A stretch of DNA of 64,000 nt. It comes from Escherichia phage ZCEC14. The notes under the pieces are model-generated. The model had not been told where the DNA came from and did no database searches. It saw only the letters and a list, made by a program, of their open reading frames with translations. The DNA lies in sequence record OP168898.1; one strand, written 5' to 3'. Below, one piece after another: positions 8,148 through 56,256 of this stretch (within the stretch, counting starts at the first letter, position 1; each line of letters opens with the position of its first letter). Position numbers and translations under genes: made by a program.

Positions 8148-8183
8148 TACCCTATCAAAACAAATGTGAAATTGGAGAATAAA

Positions 8184-9152
8184 ATGAAAACTGTAACTAT
8201 CAATAAGGGTATCTACTTCGGTAAAGAAATCTCTGGAACTTTTGAGCTCTTAGGCGAATGGTTCCCAGATAATGCTCCGGTAGATGCACAAGGAGATGGT
8301 AAAGTTTTTGTTGAAATTGACGGTAAACGTCGCGGTGTTTGGGTTTACAAATCAGATATTTCATATGATGGTGTAAAAGTTGAAGAAGTTAAAGAATCAT
8401 ATGAAGATATGAAAACCCGCATTAATAAAAGATTTAATGTTATGGGAATGATGACGAATGGTATTATTAATGGAAATATTCGTTCATTGATTATCTCTGG
8501 CGCAGCAGGTATTGGTAAAACGTATTCTTTAGATAAAGCTTTAAATAAAGCAAATGATAATGGATACATTGAATATAAAAGCATTAACGGTAAAATCTCT
8601 GGTATTGGTCTTTATGAACAGCTTTGGAATAATCGTGAAGAGAATTCTGTCCTTTTGATTGATGATGTGGATGTTTTCTCTGATATGGACATTCTTAATC
8701 TTCTAAAAGCTGCTCTGGACACTGGAGAGACCCGTAAAGTCTGCTGGAGCACTGCATCTTCTTACTTAGAAGAAAAAGGCATTGACCGTGAGTTTGAATT
8801 TAAAGGAACGATTGTTTTTATCACAAACGTTGACATTGACCGCGAATTAGACCGTGGTACTAAACTTGCTCCACATTTACAAGCATTAGTGTCCCGCTCA
8901 GTTTATTTAGATTTGGGTGTTCACACTAATGAAGAAATTATGGTCAGGGTTGAAGATGTTATTCTTTCAACTGACATGATGCAAAAGCGCGGTCTTTCTG
9001 ATGAAGAAACTTATAAAGCATTATCATGGATGAAAGTTAATGTTAATCGTTTACGCAATGTTTCACTGCGTACTGCTCTTTATCTTGCTGACTTTATTAT
9101 GACCGACAAAAACGGTTGGGAAGAAATTGCTGAGGTTACTCTTCTGAAATAA
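8184..9152 (+). CDS. AAA+ family ATPase
   Basis: 322 aa from ATG with SD ggaga; Walker A GAAGIGKT and Walker B LLIDDVD. Confidence 0.65.
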   Translation: MKTVTINKGIYFGKEISGTFELLGEWFPDNAPVDAQGDGKVFVEIDGKRRGVWVYKSDISYDGVKVEEVKESYEDMKTRINKRFNVMGMMTNGIINGNIRSLIISGAAGIGKTYSLDKALNKANDNGYIEYKSINGKISGIGLYEQLWNNREENSVLLIDDVDVFSDMDILNLLKAALDTGETRKVCWSTASSYLEEKGIDREFEFKGTIVFITNVDIDRELDRGTKLAPHLQALVSRSVYLDLGVHTNEEIMVRVEDVILSTDMMQKRGLSDEETYKALSWMKVNVNRLRNVSLRTALYLADFIMTDKNGWEEIAEVTLLK

Positions 9153-9616: not shown

Positions 9617-10144
9617 ATGAACGCTAAAGATATTTTCAACTTGGTAAATTACAACGATGGCAAATTTAAATCTGAAGCGCAAAGCAAGTTCTTTAACGAC
9701 ATCTCAATCGGAGGTGAAATCACTGTTGATGGAGGACAAATTTACAAATCCCGTTGGAATTGGATCGTTATTATTGATGAGATCGGTATTGTAGAAATTT
9801 ACAAGAATACGAATAAAAATCGTACATTACACTGGTCTCGTGATACTAACGAACAGTACAAAAAGGATAAAGCATCTAAAATGTCTCGTGTAACTCAAGA
9901 AGATATTGAGTTCATCAAGAAAGATATTTTAATGTATGATAACTTAATTGCTGAAGAGCAAGCTGTTATTGATAAATTTGACGAGATTAAAGCTTCTCGT
10001 GAAATTCCTGATTTTATGAAAGAATCAGTAAATGAACGATACTCTCTCATTTCAGAGCGTATTGAAACTTACAAAAAGCAAAGAGCTGAACGCCAAAATA
10101 CTCTTCGGAAGTTTGAAGAACGGTTAAAGACGGTACTCGCATAA
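9617..10144 (+). CDS. hypothetical protein
   Basis: 175-aa ORF directly downstream of promoter/leader cassette. Confidence 0.55.
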   Translation: MNAKDIFNLVNYNDGKFKSEAQSKFFNDISIGGEITVDGGQIYKSRWNWIVIIDEIGIVEIYKNTNKNRTLHWSRDTNEQYKKDKASKMSRVTQEDIEFIKKDILMYDNLIAEEQAVIDKFDEIKASREIPDFMKESVNERYSLISERIETYKKQRAERQNTLRKFEERLKTVLA

Positions 10145-10170
10145 CCGCTTTATACCAAGGATGGTATAAT
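10145..10170 (+). promoter_or_regulatory. putative promoter (extended -10 only)
   Basis: TGgTATAAT at 10162-10170; no clear -35. Confidence 0.35.
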
Positions 10171-10614: not shown

Positions 10615-11505
10615 ATGTCAGTAGTAATTAATAATGTCAATGCAGTAATTAAATCTTTAGTTAATAAAAAAATGATGAATGAATGGACTGTACTTCGTCG
10701 TGGAGAGCCAGATAAATTTTTTCATAGATTTAACCCAACTTTGGATTTGAATGTTATTGATAAAGATGTTCATGCCGAAATTTTAGATAAGTTTAAAGTT
10801 GATATTGGATTTGGATTAGAAAAACATTTACAGCGAACAAATGGATCTGGAATGAGTTTATCTAATCGCATTATGAAAGCCCTTAATAAAATTGGAGCAT
10901 TGTCTCGTATTAACGCGAGTGAAATCCTTCGTAATTATAATAAAGGATACGACCTTTATGGTCGACTAATGCCGAAATTATCATTTGACCAAATGATCGC
11001 AGATTTGTGGGAAAATCAACGACGATTATTAGCATTAGGCGCTCGATTAGCTAAAGGTCTAGATAAACAAATGATTTTTAAGACCAATAATACAGAAGAC
11101 CTTAAATGCTTTAAATTTAGTACTCGTGGAGATGATTATTACGTCAGAGCTCACTCTACAGATTATGTTAATATGGGGCATCATCTCTGTTTAGCTTTTG
11201 AAGTTTTAAAAGAAGCTGGAACATTAGAATATTCATCTGGTGCTAAATGTCCGATTGGTTCAAATTGCATTTTAATTTATCGCCCAGATGAATCCAGTTC
11301 ATCTAAATTACCTACAAAACCTGTACCAGTTCGTAGTAACGAAAAACATTCTGAACAAATTGCTTATTTTAATAAGCAGATTGAAGAGCTAAATATTTCT
11401 ATTCAGCAATATGATGATGAAATTTTCAGACTATCTGGATTGAGTAGTAAAGCTAAATCTGAGCGTGAAAAGTTAATTAAAATTGTCGATTTACTTAAAT
11501 CTTAA
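10615..11505 (+). CDS. coiled-coil-tailed paralogue family protein (copy 1)
   Basis: 296 aa from ATG with SD gagga; central RRLLALGARLAKG motif and C-terminal coiled-coil-like tail. Confidence 0.6.
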   Translation: MSVVINNVNAVIKSLVNKKMMNEWTVLRRGEPDKFFHRFNPTLDLNVIDKDVHAEILDKFKVDIGFGLEKHLQRTNGSGMSLSNRIMKALNKIGALSRINASEILRNYNKGYDLYGRLMPKLSFDQMIADLWENQRRLLALGARLAKGLDKQMIFKTNNTEDLKCFKFSTRGDDYYVRAHSTDYVNMGHHLCLAFEVLKEAGTLEYSSGAKCPIGSNCILIYRPDESSSSKLPTKPVPVRSNEKHSEQIAYFNKQIEELNISIQQYDDEIFRLSGLSSKAKSEREKLIKIVDLLKS

Positions 11506-11513
11506 GGAACACC

Positions 11514-12536
11514 ATGAAAACTCGTTCTCAAATTGAAGATATGGTTCGTAATGCCAGCTATACCCGTGATGTTATGACATTTTTGTGTGAAAATAATTTA
11601 GACCCTGATAAAGTTAATCGTGTTATTCATCACTTTAAGTATACGAATAGCAGTGAATGGGTGCGTAATTTTAGTAAAGCAGGGTATATTACACAAATGA
11701 CTGCTCGTGAACAGCTCACCGATTTCTGTAAAACTATTGATTATAAAAATCCTTTGATTGTTCAAGGCGTTGGTCAAAGTAAGGTCGATTTATCATCTGG
11801 ATTTTTCAATCCAAATCATTATCGTATTGAATGGAGATTTATTGCTCTGTTCCGTAGACAATTAAAGCAAATTTTGTCTACTGCTAGTCGATTAAAAGGC
11901 TCTGATATTAACTTAAAGAATCTGAAATTTGATGGTTATACTCTTCAGATGGAAGTAAGACCGTTAAAAGAAAATAATAGAACTGCGCGAATTAGCTTTA
12001 AACCTAATACAAAAAATTCTCTTTCAATTTGTGAATGCCTTAAATCGCAGTTGACAGAAGCATTTAAGTATATGGATGTTGTTGCTGCTGTTCAATCTAA
12101 GATTTTACCTCGTTTTGAGCGAAATTGGGAACATACAACAACATATGAACTTGATATGATCGTTTCATTTAAATACGATTTTTTGAGAAAGGACGAAGTC
12201 ACACAAGAGAAAAAGCAGGAAGTGCAAGATAACTTAAATTTATCCAATTACTCATCAAACGATCCTAAATTTTGGATGTATAGTTCAGGTAATAAAGATG
12301 CATGGAAATTCAATAAAGTGAATTTTCTTCCTATTGAAAATCCGAGTCTTAAACCTGTTGAAAAATGGCATGCAGATGCGATTGAGAAGTCTATCAAGGC
12401 AGTAGATGATGAACTCGTTGAAGCAACTAATGAAGTGTTAGAAGCTGAAAAGGTGTTAGAAAAAGCTCAAGAAAAAGTCAAAAATCTCACGAAGCAACGT
12501 TCTAAACTGAACAATGCACTAAATGCACTGAACTAG
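11514..12536 (+). CDS. coiled-coil-tailed paralogue family protein (copy 2)
   Basis: 340 aa; SD aagga; RRQLKQILSTASRLKGSD motif; Glu/Lys-rich heptad-like C-terminus. Confidence 0.6.
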   Translation: MKTRSQIEDMVRNASYTRDVMTFLCENNLDPDKVNRVIHHFKYTNSSEWVRNFSKAGYITQMTAREQLTDFCKTIDYKNPLIVQGVGQSKVDLSSGFFNPNHYRIEWRFIALFRRQLKQILSTASRLKGSDINLKNLKFDGYTLQMEVRPLKENNRTARISFKPNTKNSLSICECLKSQLTEAFKYMDVVAAVQSKILPRFERNWEHTTTYELDMIVSFKYDFLRKDEVTQEKKQEVQDNLNLSNYSSNDPKFWMYSSGNKDAWKFNKVNFLPIENPSLKPVEKWHADAIEKSIKAVDDELVEATNEVLEAEKVLEKAQEKVKNLTKQRSKLNNALNALN

Positions 12537-12565
12537 TTTACTTTACCACAAGGATGTGGTATAAT
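12536..12565 (+). promoter_or_regulatory. early sigma70-type promoter
   Basis: -35 GTTTAC 12536-12541, 18-bp spacer with ccaca/tgtgg repeat, -10 TATAAT 12560-12565; near-identical copy at 56227. Confidence 0.7.
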
Positions 12566-12593
12566 GTTCTTACTTTCTACTGAGGAGATTAAT

Positions 12594-13595
12594 ATGACTC
12601 GTAACGAATATATCAAATCATTTAATAGCGTTATTGATGATAAAGTTAAACCTATGTCTAGTCAGAATAACGTTATTTCCATTATCAATCAATGGCTCAA
12701 TAATATTGATGTAAGCATTGTTTCTTCCAGCAAATTTATTCATGAAGTTCATAAAATTTCTAGTCGCGAAGATAAAGGTGATATTAAGGAAACCTTTAAA
12801 GGTTCTCGTCTTCTTTCATATTTAGTTAATCAGGATATTCTTGGTAATTTTGGGAAAGAAATTAAACGAACCAAAGATGTAGTAGGATATAATTGGTTTG
12901 GTGATGTTAATTCTTATCATCTTAATAATAAAGAAGACCCTGAGAATATTTTTACTCGTCGTTGGATTAGTAATTTCAGACTTTTCAAAAAGCAAATTCT
13001 AAAATCAGCTTCTAAATTATGCTATGGTGATTATCGTCAAATTCATCCTTGGGCTTCTGACATGATTATCATAAAAGAATATGAACTTGATAAAAATAAA
13101 GCAGCTATTTTTGTGAATTATGGATTTTTTACACCAGAAGCTAATCAAAAGAACATTAATAAATTTTTCTCAATTGCTAGTGATATAACTCGTCAATTAG
13201 AGACTGCATTATTTTGTATGGAAACGGTAGAAAATATTCATACTTATCCTTTTAAGAATATGTGCGGCTGGGAAGGATATAAAATTGTAGTTAGTCTCCG
13301 TGAAGTAAAGTGCGCGTACTCACCGACTGATAAAGAAATTTACCAACAAAAATGTGATGAAATTGTGAATACTCCTAAAGAAGAAACTACCCTTGAGGAA
13401 CTAATGGAATGTCTTGATGATTCACTTGAACCGGTAGAAATTCGTCCAGAAGTTATTGCACTAGAAAAAGCTTATAAAGAAGTTCTAGAAATTTCTAATA
13501 AAGCACAGAAAGAATATGAGCAGGCTAAAAGGATTTGGGAAGAATCTGTTAATCGCCTGGATCGTCTTGAACAAGCTTTACAGTTAATTAAGTAA
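12594..13595 (+). CDS. coiled-coil-tailed paralogue family protein (copy 3)
   Basis: 333 aa from ATG with SD gaggag; KKQILKSASKLCYGD motif; coiled-coil-like tail. Confidence 0.6.
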   Translation: MTRNEYIKSFNSVIDDKVKPMSSQNNVISIINQWLNNIDVSIVSSSKFIHEVHKISSREDKGDIKETFKGSRLLSYLVNQDILGNFGKEIKRTKDVVGYNWFGDVNSYHLNNKEDPENIFTRRWISNFRLFKKQILKSASKLCYGDYRQIHPWASDMIIIKEYELDKNKAAIFVNYGFFTPEANQKNINKFFSIASDITRQLETALFCMETVENIHTYPFKNMCGWEGYKIVVSLREVKCAYSPTDKEIYQQKCDEIVNTPKEETTLEELMECLDDSLEPVEIRPEVIALEKAYKEVLEISNKAQKEYEQAKRIWEESVNRLDRLEQALQLIK

Positions 13596-13647
13596 TTTAA
13601 AGCCAAGGATGGCTCGGAGTATAAATCATTAACCAAGTGAGAAGAAC

Positions 13648-14577
13648 ATGAAAACTCGTAAACATTATATTGATTATTTTGATAGTCTTATTACTAAACA
13701 CCGTAATTATCAGATTGGGCACAGAGCAGTAATCAATAATATTCTTCGTGATTTCTTTCAATATGTTGGCCAGGAAAATCATATCTGTAAAGATACTCAA
13801 AACGCTTATTCTCATTCGTTAGGCAATTTGCTTGAATGGTTTAAACGTTCTCGTCTGTTATCTTCTACTGTAGCTAGTGATAACATTAAAAACTTTATGA
13901 AGCCGAGCTTCATTAAATCTGAGACATCTATAACCGATTTGGTTGAATTTACTATTGTTAACGATGTTAAAAAGACCCATTTGGCTGATTGGTTATCTAC
14001 CATTCCCGAAACTAAATTTGCTGATAAATTCGCTTGTCAATTCAATGACCAAGTGAATATGCTTTTTAAGCATGCTCGTAAACTATTTACCGCGGGCGAT
14101 GACCGTACAAATACAGTTCATGTTAAGGATTGGGTTATTGCTGATGAAGTAACACACAAGCCAGGTGGTTCATCAGTATTAATTAATATCCAGGTTCCTT
14201 ATTATTACTCACGTAATCTCGGCACCATGACAGCTAGAGAAATTAATAAGCACAACAAAATTATTCGTTCGTTGTCTTATAAACTCTGCACGATGGTGGA
14301 GATGATGGACGTAGTGGAAATGTATGACGAAACCGAAGATAATGGTTCAATGCTGTACAGTTCACGCATTCTAATTAAACTGAAGAACCCTAATACATAT
14401 AAGCAAGTTGTAAAAGAACCTAAAGTAGAAAAGGTTGATAACTTGAGCGAAGAACGTGAATATCTCAAATCTCGACTGGTTGAAGTTGAAGCCCAAATTG
14501 CAGAACACACCAAATTGTTAAAAGCTCTTAATGCAAAAGCAAATGGTTTACGTAATGCTATTGAGGTATTGAAATGA
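13648..14577 (+). CDS. coiled-coil-tailed paralogue family protein (copy 4)
   Basis: 309 aa; MLFKHARKLFTAGDD motif; C-terminal heptad-like tail ...[19 protein letters not shown]. Confidence 0.6.
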   Translation: MKTRKHYIDYFDSLITKHRNYQIGHRAVINNILRDFFQYVGQENHICKDTQNAYSHSLGNLLEWFKRSRLLSSTVASDNIKNFMKPSFIKSETSITDLVEFTIVNDVKKTHLADWLSTIPETKFADKFACQFNDQVNMLFKHARKLFTAGDDRTNTVHVKDWVIADEVTHKPGGSSVLINIQVPYYYSRNLGTMTAREINKHNKIIRSLSYKLCTMVEMMDVVEMYDETEDNGSMLYSSRILIKLKNPNTYKQVVKEPKVEKVDNLSEEREYLKSRLVEVEAQIAEHTKLLKALNAKANGLRNAIEVLK

Positions 14578-54409: not shown

Positions 54410-56227
54410 ATGATTAAGAATGAAATTAAAATTCTGAGCGATATTGAACATATCAAAAAGCGTAGCGGCATGTACATTGGCTCTTCAGCTAATGAAATGC
54501 ATGAGCGCTTTCTGTTTGGTAAATGGGAAAGTGTTCAGTATGTACCTGGTCTTGTTAAGCTTATTGATGAAATTATCGATAACTCAGTAGATGAAGGTAT
54601 TCGTACTAAGTTTAAATTCGCAAATAAAATTAATGTTACTATCAAAAACAATCAAGTAACAGTTGAAGATAACGGTCGTGGTATTCCACAAGCGATGGTT
54701 AAAACACCTACCGGTGAAGAAATTCCTGGTCCTGTTGCTGCGTGGACTATTCCAAAAGCAGGTGGTAACTTTGGTGATGATAAAGAACGCGTCACTGGCG
54801 GTATGAATGGTGTTGGTTCTAGTTTGACAAACATTTTTTCTGTGATGTTTGTTGGTGAAACTGGCGACGGTGAAAATAATATTGTAGTTCGTTGTTCAAA
54901 TGGCATGGAAAATAAATCATGGGAAGATATTCCTGGAAAATGGAAAGGAACCCGTGTTACTTTCATTCCTGATTTTATGTCATTTGAAACTAATGAGCTG
55001 TCCCAAGTTTATCTTGACATTACACTAGATCGTCTCCAGACACTTGCTGTTGTTTATCCTGATATTCAATTTACCTTTAATGGTAAAAAGGTTCAGGGCA
55101 ATTTTAAGAAATATGCACGCCAATATGATGAGCATGCTATCGTTCAAGAACAAGAAAATTGTTCTATTGCGGTTGGTCGTTCACCGGATGGTTTTCGTCA
55201 ATTAACATACGTGAATAACATTCATACTAAGAATGGTGGCCATCACATTGACTGCGTTATGGATGATATTTGTGAAGACCTTATTCCACAAATCAAACGT
55301 AAGTTCAAAATTGATGTAACTAAAGCACGCGTTAAAGAATGTTTGACTATCGTTATGTTTGTTCGTGATATGAAAAACATGCGATTTGATTCTCAAACTA
55401 AAGAGCGTTTGACTTCTCCATTTGGCGAAATTCGTAGTCATATTCAACTTGATGCTAAAAAGATTTCACGTGCTATTCTAAATAATGAAGCGATTTTGAT
55501 GCCGATTATTGAAGCTGCTTTGGCTCGTAAATTGGCGGCAGAAAAAGCAGCAGAAACTAAAGCAGCTAAAAAGGCTTCTAAAGCTAAGGTTCATAAACAT
55601 ATTAAAGCGAATCTTTGTGGTAAAGATGCTGATACTACTCTTTTCTTGACTGAGGGTGATTCTGCTATCGGATATCTTATTGATGTTCGTGATAAAGAAC
55701 TTCACGGTGGTTATCCATTGCGTGGTAAAGTTCTTAATAGCTGGGGTATGTCTTATGCCGATATGCTTAAAAACAAAGAACTGTTTGATATTTGCGCAAT
55801 CACTGGATTAGTTCTTGGTGAAAAAGCCGAAAACTTGAATTATCATAATATTGCAATTATGACTGATGCTGACCATGATGGTCTAGGAAGCATTTATCCT
55901 TCTCTGCTCGGATTTTTTAGTAATTGGCCAGAACTGTTTGAACAAGGAAGAATTCGTTTTGTCAAAACTCCTGTAATCATCGCTCAGGTCGGTAAAAAAC
56001 AAGAATGGTTTTATACAGTCGCTGAATATGAGAGTGCCAAAGATGCTCTACCTAAACATAGCATCCGTTATATTAAGGGACTTGGCTCTTTGGAAAAATC
56101 TGAATATCGTGAGATGATTCAAAACCCAGTATATGATGTTGTTAAACTTCCTGAGAACTGGAAAGAGCTTTTTGAAATGCTCATGGGAGATAATGCTGAC
56201 CTTCGTAAAGAATGGATGAGCCAGTAG
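54410..56227 (+). CDS. 39: DNA topoisomerase II large subunit gp39, uninterrupted
   Basis: 605 aa from ATG; GyrB-like ATPase and Toprim motifs in one continuous ORF. Confidence 0.9.
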   Translation: MIKNEIKILSDIEHIKKRSGMYIGSSANEMHERFLFGKWESVQYVPGLVKLIDEIIDNSVDEGIRTKFKFANKINVTIKNNQVTVEDNGRGIPQAMVKTPTGEEIPGPVAAWTIPKAGGNFGDDKERVTGGMNGVGSSLTNIFSVMFVGETGDGENNIVVRCSNGMENKSWEDIPGKWKGTRVTFIPDFMSFETNELSQVYLDITLDRLQTLAVVYPDIQFTFNGKKVQGNFKKYARQYDEHAIVQEQENCSIAVGRSPDGFRQLTYVNNIHTKNGGHHIDCVMDDICEDLIPQIKRKFKIDVTKARVKECLTIVMFVRDMKNMRFDSQTKERLTSPFGEIRSHIQLDAKKISRAILNNEAILMPIIEAALARKLAAEKAAETKAAKKASKAKVHKHIKANLCGKDADTTLFLTEGDSAIGYLIDVRDKELHGGYPLRGKVLNSWGMSYADMLKNKELFDICAITGLVLGEKAENLNYHNIAIMTDADHDGLGSIYPSLLGFFSNWPELFEQGRIRFVKTPVIIAQVGKKQEWFYTVAEYESAKDALPKHSIRYIKGLGSLEKSEYREMIQNPVYDVVKLPENWKELFEMLMGDNADLRKEWMSQ

Positions 56228-56256
56228 TTTACTTTACCACAAGGATGTGGTAAAAT
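56227..56256 (+). promoter_or_regulatory. early sigma70-type promoter
   Basis: -35 GTTTAC 56227-56232, 18-bp spacer, -10 TAAAAT 56251-56256; near-identical to promoter at 12536. Confidence 0.65.

Follow-up and report, generated by a model that had tools for sequence, protein, structure and literature searches.

The nrdC.6-nrdC.3 genes

The window analysed here is a stretch of 64,000 nucleotides of Escherichia phage ZCEC14 (sequence record OP168898.1). We considered four consecutive open reading frames (ORFs) on its plus strand, denoted A to D, which appear to encode very divergent paralogues with coiled-coil tails, one of them the orthologue of the anti-Dsr1 factor NrdC.5 of phage T4. The window belongs to a Tequatrovirus (T4-like phage): the 5.5 kb around the array are 96-97% identical to IME537, RB3 and other phages, and the 87-amino acid (aa) product encoded downstream is 100% identical to T4 NrdC. 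Synteny with the annotated RB3 and T4 records identifies the ORFs as follows.

10615..11505, plus strand: ORF A, nrdC.6, 296 aa; PF26899 Phage_T4_Y05B; phrog_2257
11514..12536, plus strand: ORF B, nrdC.5, 340 aa; DUF7235 PF23882; phrog_2351; orthologue of the T4 anti-Dsr1 factor
12594..13595, plus strand: ORF C, nrdC.4, 333 aa; PF26897 Phage_T4_Y04OP; phrog_1435
13648..14577, plus strand: ORF D, nrdC.3, 309 aa; PHROG and Pfam family as for C; divergent allele

An earlier note, made from the sequence alone, had listed four consecutive ORFs of exactly these lengths between 10615 and 14577 and placed them in the tk-nrdC hyperplastic region; identity and synteny bear this out, the locus being the accessory region of a T4-like phage, and the comparison with the T4 nrdC.x ORFs that it proposed yields the gene names given above.

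Good Shine-Dalgarno boxes precede the ATG start codons of A (GAGGAAAAT) and C (GAGGAG). ORF A is 97.7% identical to T4 NrdC.6 across residues 1-259, beyond which the T4 reference is frameshifted. ORF B has the same length and position as T4 NrdC.5 and is 95% identical to it, and ORF C is 90.7% identical to T4 NrdC.4. The identity of ORF D to NrdC.3 of other phages is 59-60% (T4), 76% (RB69) and 95% (RB3).

Pfam distributes the four ORFs over three families; in PHROGs, C and D form one family and A and B are each separate. ORF B matches DUF7235 over its full length (E 3.7e-130, 434 bits, cutoff 30). A Pfam hidden Markov model (HMM) search produced no DUF7235 match for A, C and D, and thus B is the only member of this family. 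C and D match phrog_1435 (E 3e-166 and 1e-114, respectively), and all homologues of C carry PF26897; membership of C and D in PF26897 was judged from these matches, the annotation of homologues and the hhalign alignment of C with D. ORF A matches phrog_2257 at E 2e-151, and PF26899 is present in all 105 of its homologues.

Homology among the four proteins

All-versus-all BLASTP found one significant pair, C-D (27% identity over 226 aa, E 1e-8), and every other pair had E > 0.2. For profile comparisons, an alignment of each family was made from database matches. As the close relatives of B are all at least 81% identical, its profile also included three distant members from an exhaustive profile search and the RB69 and C6 homologues.

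In hhalign comparisons C and D align with 98% probability (E 2e-14). B aligns to the joint C and D profile with 94.7% probability (E 5.7e-8, 178 collinear columns); the score is 62, and that of the reversed profile is 15. A compared with single families yields E-values of 0.002-0.03, among them 0.0016 (B alone) and 0.009 (C and D alone). Against the merged B/C/D profile A scores 41.7 (E 4.8e-5); the reversed profile scores 16.5 and each of 20 column-shuffled profiles at most 18.7. When the 183 ORFs of the window were all searched with HMMER, B and C/D proved to be each other's best non-self match, and no fifth family member was found among these ORFs.

The families are bridged by genes of other Straboviridae, which carry one to three relatives immediately upstream of nrdC. 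Over its full length, gp80 of Klebsiella phage Marfa (315 aa) is similar to B (93.5%, E 2e-7) as well as to C/D (96.4%, E 1e-9). In Yersinia phage fHe-Yen9-01, gp94 (292 aa) resembles A (hmmsearch E 1e-5; hhalign alignment over 166 collinear columns) and also C/D (64.8%, E 6e-5). Acinetobacter phage Konradin gp116 has weaker matches to the family. The profile of A with gp94 aligns to B/C/D with 92.4% probability, and A aligns to the superfamily including the bridging homologues with 93.9% probability (E 1.5e-7, 136 columns).

Significant profile-profile similarity was thus observed between all member families of the proposed NrdC.3-6 superfamily, which is confined to Straboviridae. On these alignments we consider the four proteins homologous, with high confidence for B, C and D and good confidence for A. 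The duplicated family described in the earlier note consists of very divergent paralogues; similarity on formal alignment, which that note proposed as a check, was found for C and D by BLASTP and for A and B by profile comparison. The genes themselves have already been catalogued. What is new is that three Pfam families are united as one coiled-coil-tailed superfamily around a known anti-Dsr1 protein.

Common architecture

Two helices are conserved in all four proteins and are in register in the hhalign alignments. Motif 1 has the consensus K.G.LS...A...L.NF.K, and motif 2 sits 50-70 residues downstream of it.

10870..10944, plus strand: motif 1 in A, aa 86-110, IMKALNKIGALSRINASEILRNYNK (KALNKIGALSRINASEILRNYNK); hhalign to motif 1 of B, C and D
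11011..11073, plus strand: motif 2 in A, aa 133-153, ENQRRLLALGARLAKGLDKQM; hhalign
11661..11732, plus strand: motif 1 in B, aa 50-73, RNFSKAGYITQMTAREQLTDFCK; hhalign, modelled helix 55-69
11838..11906, plus strand: motif 2 in B, aa 109-131, FIALFRRQLKQILSTASRLKGSD; hhalign, modelled helix 105-128
12786..12860, plus strand: motif 1 in C, aa 65-89, ETFKGSRLLSYLVNQDILGNFGK; hhalign
12963..13031, plus strand: motif 2 in C, aa 124-146, WISNFRLFKKQILKSASKLCYGD; hhalign
13828..13902, plus strand: motif 1 in D, aa 61-85, EWFKRSRLLSSTVASDNIKNFMK; hhalign and direct reading of the sequence
14029..14103, plus strand: motif 2 in D, aa 128-152, ...NMLFKHARKLFTAGDD; hhalign

Motif 2, nearly invariant in the NrdC.6 family, is the central motif reported in the earlier note, and is real. 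The N-terminal halves, described there as dissimilar, are not wholly so, since the motif 1 helix lies upstream of the central motif. A, B and C carry a strongly basic motif 2, and A, B and D as a whole have an isoelectric point (pI) of about 9; thus these three proteins are not acidic DNA mimics.

Structures of A and B were modelled with AlphaFold2 (AF2). The mean predicted local distance difference test score (pLDDT) is 77.5 for A, with a predicted TM-score (pTM) of 0.65, and 64.7 for B, where the core and the tail reach 77-93. The order of elements is the same in both models: the motif 1 helix, short strands, the motif 2 helix, a beta hairpin, a helix, a beta hairpin, a linker and a long C-terminal helix. 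The linker is modelled with low confidence and comprises 15 residues in A and about 55 in B. The C-terminal tails are as follows, where the heptad test gives the number of shuffles (n = 2000) that reach or exceed the observed enrichment of LIVM at a/d positions.

11341..11502, plus strand: tail of A, aa 243-296; AF2 helices 243-272 and 278-295; heptad test 13/2000; C-terminal KL..ΦΦ..LK
12357..12533, plus strand: tail of B, aa 282-340; single AF2 helix 282-339, pLDDT 83-93; heptad test 0/2000
13437..13592, plus strand: tail of C, aa 282-333; heptad test 121/2000; C-terminal RLEQALQLIK
14425..14574, plus strand: tail of D, aa 260-309; heptad test 0/2000; C-terminal motif present

Long helices (54-58 residues in the models of A and B) and heptad a/d periodicity characterise these tails as coiled coils, C being weaker. 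The check for coiled coils suggested in the earlier note, carried out as heptad shuffles and AF2 models, is positive for A, B and D. The heptad-like tails rich in K, E and L that it described are present in all four proteins, if weakly in C, but are 50-59 residues long rather than about 40. An ungapped alignment of the C-termini shows the pattern (K/R)L..A-Φ..LK-COOH in members from all genera. The tails are therefore probably homologous and constrained, which goes beyond mere composition. A common build of two helices, a ββαββ core, a disordered linker and a heptad helix of 50-59 residues is very probable. The surface of the core differs between paralogues and alleles.

Several records deviate in the tail. 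The T4 reference NrdC.6 is 275 aa long and continues after residue 259 in another frame (ELIFLFNNMMMKFSDYLD), so that the entire tail is lost; the tail is kept in the window (11391-11440 compared), in RB3, in RB69 and in about 100 homologues. The T4 frameshift is either a real lesion of the laboratory strain or an old sequencing error. The annotated NrdC.5 of RB69 (300 aa) ends in a non-helical sequence, and another frame encodes a typical tail (...LDKAQAKLRDAQSVVTNLQLQYSKLFNAMNALKS*); thus the RB69 record, too, carries a frameshift that removes the tail. A 173-aa ORF on an 803-bp metagenome contig combines an unrelated N-terminus with a tail identical to that of NrdC.5. This may reflect either shuffling of tail modules or, on so short a contig, a chimera from assembly. 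The neighbouring gene product NrdC.8 (175 aa; 9617-10144) also has a C-terminal helix-like tail rich in K, E and R, but it has no profile similarity to the array and was rejected as a fifth member.

Foldseek searches of BFVD with the models of A and B retrieved uncharacterised proteins of T4-like phages infecting Erwinia, Klebsiella, Yersinia, Aeromonas, Acinetobacter, Pectobacterium, Enterobacter and Citrobacter. Both models retrieved the targets A0A1V0DXL6 (fHe-Yen9-01) and A0A2Z4QAR2 (Mineola). The model of B also matched proteins of tail completion or tail termination (E 4e-3 to 4e-2, TM-score 0.16-0.46), which raised the idea of a decoy of a structural protein; these matches were too weak to be accepted, and had no counterpart for the model of A.

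Pfam, NCBIfam and PADLOC searches with the four ORFs found no informative family beyond DUFs, Pfam and NCBIfam no helix-turn-helix (HTH) or other nucleic-acid-binding family, and a sequence search of PDB with all four proteins no matching chain. The absence of a catalytic motif reported in the earlier note agrees with these searches, which gave no enzyme family or known fold. Weak library matches to DUF4164, DndD, BrxC and PgrA are confined to the coiled-coil tail and reflect its composition. The "Mur ligase domain" annotated in IME537 belongs to nrdC.7, outside the array.

Evolution of the array

The ratio of nonsynonymous to synonymous substitution rates (dN/dS) relative to T4 is 0.17-0.29 for the four genes and 0.02-0.09 for nrdC.8-10. 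The array genes evolve faster than nrdC.8-10, yet are under purifying selection; positive selection was rejected, as dN/dS (0.16-0.29) does not exceed 1. The diversification proposed in the earlier note is only weakly supported and was overstated: dN/dS is higher than for nrdC.8-10, but well below 1.

The nrdC.3 gene (ORF D) has dS of about 1.1 relative to T4, and its flanks have about 0.13. Such a high value beside these flanks indicates replacement of the allele rather than fast evolution in place. NrdC.3 forms three deeply divergent allele groups among phages that are otherwise about 95% identical. In tblastn searches, 355 records have identity of at least 90%, 162 have 60-80% and 130 are below 60%. 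The divergence is concentrated at residues about 75-260, and the N-terminus and the tail are similar.

The order of genes of types.6,.5 and.4 is kept in phage C6 (annotated as an Escherichia phage) and in a metagenome contig, with one Y04OP copy each. RB69 carries.6,.5 and.3 and lacks.4. The conserved order and the RB69 gene content imply that the three lineages are old and that the nrdC.3/nrdC.4 pair is the youngest duplication. This last split looks specific to Tequatrovirus-like genomes. With one to three copies in other genera, the copy number is that of an accessory gene.

Two rearranged proteins were observed. A 299-aa protein on a 167-kb phage contig consists of NrdC.5 (from residue 146 to ...KFNKVN) fused in frame to NrdC.3 (from MLFKHARK...), with a junction exactly at motif 2 and loss of nrdC.4. 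This fusion suggests that paralogues recombine at the short shared FN..VN sequence. Within NrdC.6 of Shigella phage Sf25 (378 aa), a segment of about 82 residues (IRAHSTDYVNMGHH...QIEEL) occurs twice in tandem; this duplication spans part of the beta core and the linker.

Candidate promoters and neighbouring genes

Two promoter-like sites were found within the array.

12537..12565, plus strand: putative T4 early promoter preceding C, TTTACT-17 nt-TATAAT with TG; a match to the consensus only
13596..13626, plus strand: promoter-like site preceding D, weaker and ambiguous, TTTAAA-18 nt-TATAAA; from direct reading of the sequence

The earlier note had assigned early promoters to two of the copies. 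The site of C is a canonical match, but that of D is weaker and ambiguous: the sequence TATAAATC upstream of D also resembles a late promoter, and a scan with the sigma-70 consensus did not report the site. The 32-nt early-promoter sequence TAGTTTACTTTACCACAAGGATGTGGTATAAT at 12534-12565 is repeated with 97% identity at 56225-56256, 43.7 kb apart, which accounts for the second location found by megablast in almost all T4-like records.

ORFs A and B lie downstream of nrdC.7 and have no promoter of their own. The region upstream of nrdC.7 (10147-10170) contains an extended -10 box TGGTATAAT at 10162-10170, missed by the sigma-70 scan, and GCTTTA 12 nt further upstream. The latter resembles a MotA box, presumably indicating a middle rather than an early promoter. 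Further upstream, NrdC.10 (8166-9152) has the Walker A motif GAAGIGKT, and its homologue in phage C6 has a faint Pfam match to AAA_14. The gene upstream of nrdC.10 in related phages encodes an RlaP nucleotidyltransferase domain.

Predicted function

The array is not a family without an assignable function, as the earlier note had it, since B is clearly homologous to a characterised protein, T4 NrdC.5, an outcome that the note itself had named as refuting. A T4 clone with compensatory deletions failed to plate on ECOR17; deletion of dsr1 in ECOR17 restored plating, cloned dsr1 protected MG1655 from the deletion clone, and the uncharacterised early gene nrdC.5, expressed alone, restored plating of the clone on MG1655 carrying dsr1 from ECOR17 (Srikant, Guegler, Laub, eLife 2022, PMC9391042). 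In the literature searched, NrdC.5 is the sole specific (non-metabolic) anti-Dsr1 factor. Dsr1 is a sirtuin defence that depletes NAD; its sensor domain, also present in Avs7, is reported to recognise the phage major capsid protein (2026 preprint, bioRxiv 10.64898/2026.01.04.697583). In a genome-reduction study, "nrdC.1-6" is one of the large fragments named as expendable for T4 (PMC9825161), and thus the block is dispensable on laboratory hosts.

Given its 95% identity to T4 NrdC.5, B very probably is an anti-Dsr1 factor. The counter-defence role suggested in the earlier note is published for the T4 orthologue of B. That A, C and D are anti-defence proteins as well is conceivable, at somewhat less than even odds. 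We favour the reading that the four genes are ancient, non-essential early paralogues acting as oligomeric, immune-blocking binding proteins, and assign it a probability of roughly 55%. The proteins would then be non-enzymatic. The coiled-coil tail would oligomerise the protein, and the flexible linker would tether the heads, which would bind to a host immune sensor and block either the sensor itself or its activation. For NrdC.5 the target would be Dsr1, with either sensing of the capsid protein or activation of the NADase being blocked; A, C and D would do an equivalent job against other host defences, paralogues and alleles supplying the differing specificities. Direct oligomeric binding, which is suggested by the architecture, is a tentative part of this scheme.

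Several observations weigh against it. Oligomerisation and direct binding of Dsr1 are deduced from architecture, and the anti-defence role of A, C and D is inferred; the model of B is of moderate confidence (pLDDT 64.7). All four genes have dN/dS < 1, with no gene-wide sign of positive selection. Conservation is greatest in motifs 1 and 2 and at the extreme C-terminus, which all paralogues have in common; this could equally mean one partner, for which it is the strongest argument. The T4 NrdC.6 and RB69 NrdC.5 records are frameshifted, so that either the tail is dispensable in those laboratory stocks or the records contain sequencing errors. Finally, in the literature searched we found nothing after 2022 on the mechanism of NrdC.5, on anti-Dsr1 activity or on kinship of NrdC.3-6.

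One possibility is that these are general host-takeover or regulatory proteins which bind nucleic acids or proteins via basic helices, the anti-Dsr1 effect being indirect, for example through the timing or amount of the trigger. The basic character of A, B and D and of motif 2 in A, B and C would fit, as would purifying selection on all four genes and conserved motifs that point to a common ligand. However, the entire nrdC.1-6 block is dispensable on laboratory hosts (PMC9825161), the sole known phenotype is specific to defence (PMC9391042), and no nucleic-acid-binding family was matched; we consider this explanation unlikely.

The four proteins might also assemble via their related tails into one hetero-oligomeric complex with a single function, anti-Dsr1 or other, rather than provide four specificities. 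The tails are homologous, all ending in KL..A.Φ..LK, motifs 1 and 2 are kept in all paralogues, and the genes lie next to each other, A and B being co-transcribed. On the other hand, nrdC.5 alone on a plasmid restores plating on dsr1+ cells (PMC9391042), the copy number varies from one to four among genera, RB69 has no nrdC.4, natural nrdC.5::nrdC.3 fusions exist, and NrdC.6 of the T4 reference lacks the tail. We consider such a complex quite improbable.

It is very improbable that the four proteins resemble each other by chance or through their composition (AT-rich ORFs, low-complexity K/E/L tails), with only C and D being true paralogues. BLASTP significance for C-D only, the E-values of 0.002-0.03 for A against single families and the weak heptad signal in the tail of C (121/2000) would agree with it, but profile, model and synteny data have already largely refuted it: the collinear alignments far exceed the reversed and shuffled controls and reach 92-95% probability once bridging sequences are added, the models of A and B are identical in the order of secondary structure elements and have structural neighbours in common, and the position upstream of nrdC is kept across genera.

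The remaining reading, thioredoxin- or glutaredoxin-like redox proteins, has next to no chance of being correct: hundreds of GenBank records of T4-like phages call nrdC.3-nrdC.6, and even nrdC.7-9, "thioredoxin", but no thioredoxin or glutaredoxin family of Pfam or NCBIfam is matched, the CxxC motif occurs in 0/4 sequences, the topology of the A and B models differs from the thioredoxin fold, and one record carries the note "similar to phage T4 thioredoxin", so that the label has probably spread from the nrdC.x locus names.

Oligomeric immune-blocking proteins remain the preferred interpretation. A more specific version is speculative and rather doubtful: the four would form a modular family of non-enzymatic immune antagonists, tethered by coiled coils and with a fold new to PDB. 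Each paralogue or allele would neutralise a different host sensor of conserved phage structural proteins (capsid sensors of the Dsr1/Avs7 type and others), alleles being swapped and copies gained or lost to match the defences of the host.

T4 is the reference phage for studies of defence and counter-defence, and most of its about 120 dispensable genes have no function assigned. Three neighbours of NrdC.5 that share its ancestry and architecture, "hypothetical proteins" wrongly labelled "thioredoxin" in hundreds of records, become concrete anti-defence candidates. Motifs 1 and 2, together with the coiled coil ending in KL..AΦ..LK, are conserved elements that mutagenesis can now target. Natural material for mapping of specificity is provided by the nrdC.3 alleles (59%, 76% and 95% identity), the tail-less T4 NrdC.6 and the single-copy homologues in Klebsiella, Yersinia and Acinetobacter phages. 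The results also argue for merging the three Pfam families into one clan.

Comparison with known systems

Reconstitution of NAD+ by NARP1 and NARP2 counters NAD-depleting systems including DSR1 (bioRxiv 10.1101/2024.02.11.579819). However, those systems are enzymes, whereas the four ORFs contain no enzyme domain or catalytic motif.

The internal proteins IPI, IPII and IPIII of T-even phages combine a conserved targeting module with variable bodies and, like NrdC.3-6, are dispensable accessory proteins of T4 encoded by a set of paralogous genes. Infection of ECOR17 is reported to be enabled by IPIII at least (PMC9391042). Unlike NrdC.3-6, which have no capsid-targeting sequence and are apparently expressed early from the genome, the internal proteins are packaged in the head and injected. 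No sequence kinship between the two sets was detected.

DSAD1 of an SPbeta-type phage, acting against DSR2, is likewise a non-enzymatic phage protein directed against a SIR2-type NAD-depleting defence. It is reported to bind DSR2 (PMC10973363, PMC10981675). The likeness is an analogy and not homology: the target is DSR2 rather than Dsr1, the phage lineage differs, and binding by NrdC.5 is conjectural. No similarity to DSAD1 was found in the PDB search, which included the deposited DSAD1-DSR2 complexes and matched no chain.

The closest known system is T4 NrdC.5 itself (Y05A_BPT4, PF23882). A, C and D belong to other Pfam families (PF26899, PF26897) and are below the DUF7235 thresholds, but they are distant homologues of NrdC.5 with the same architecture.

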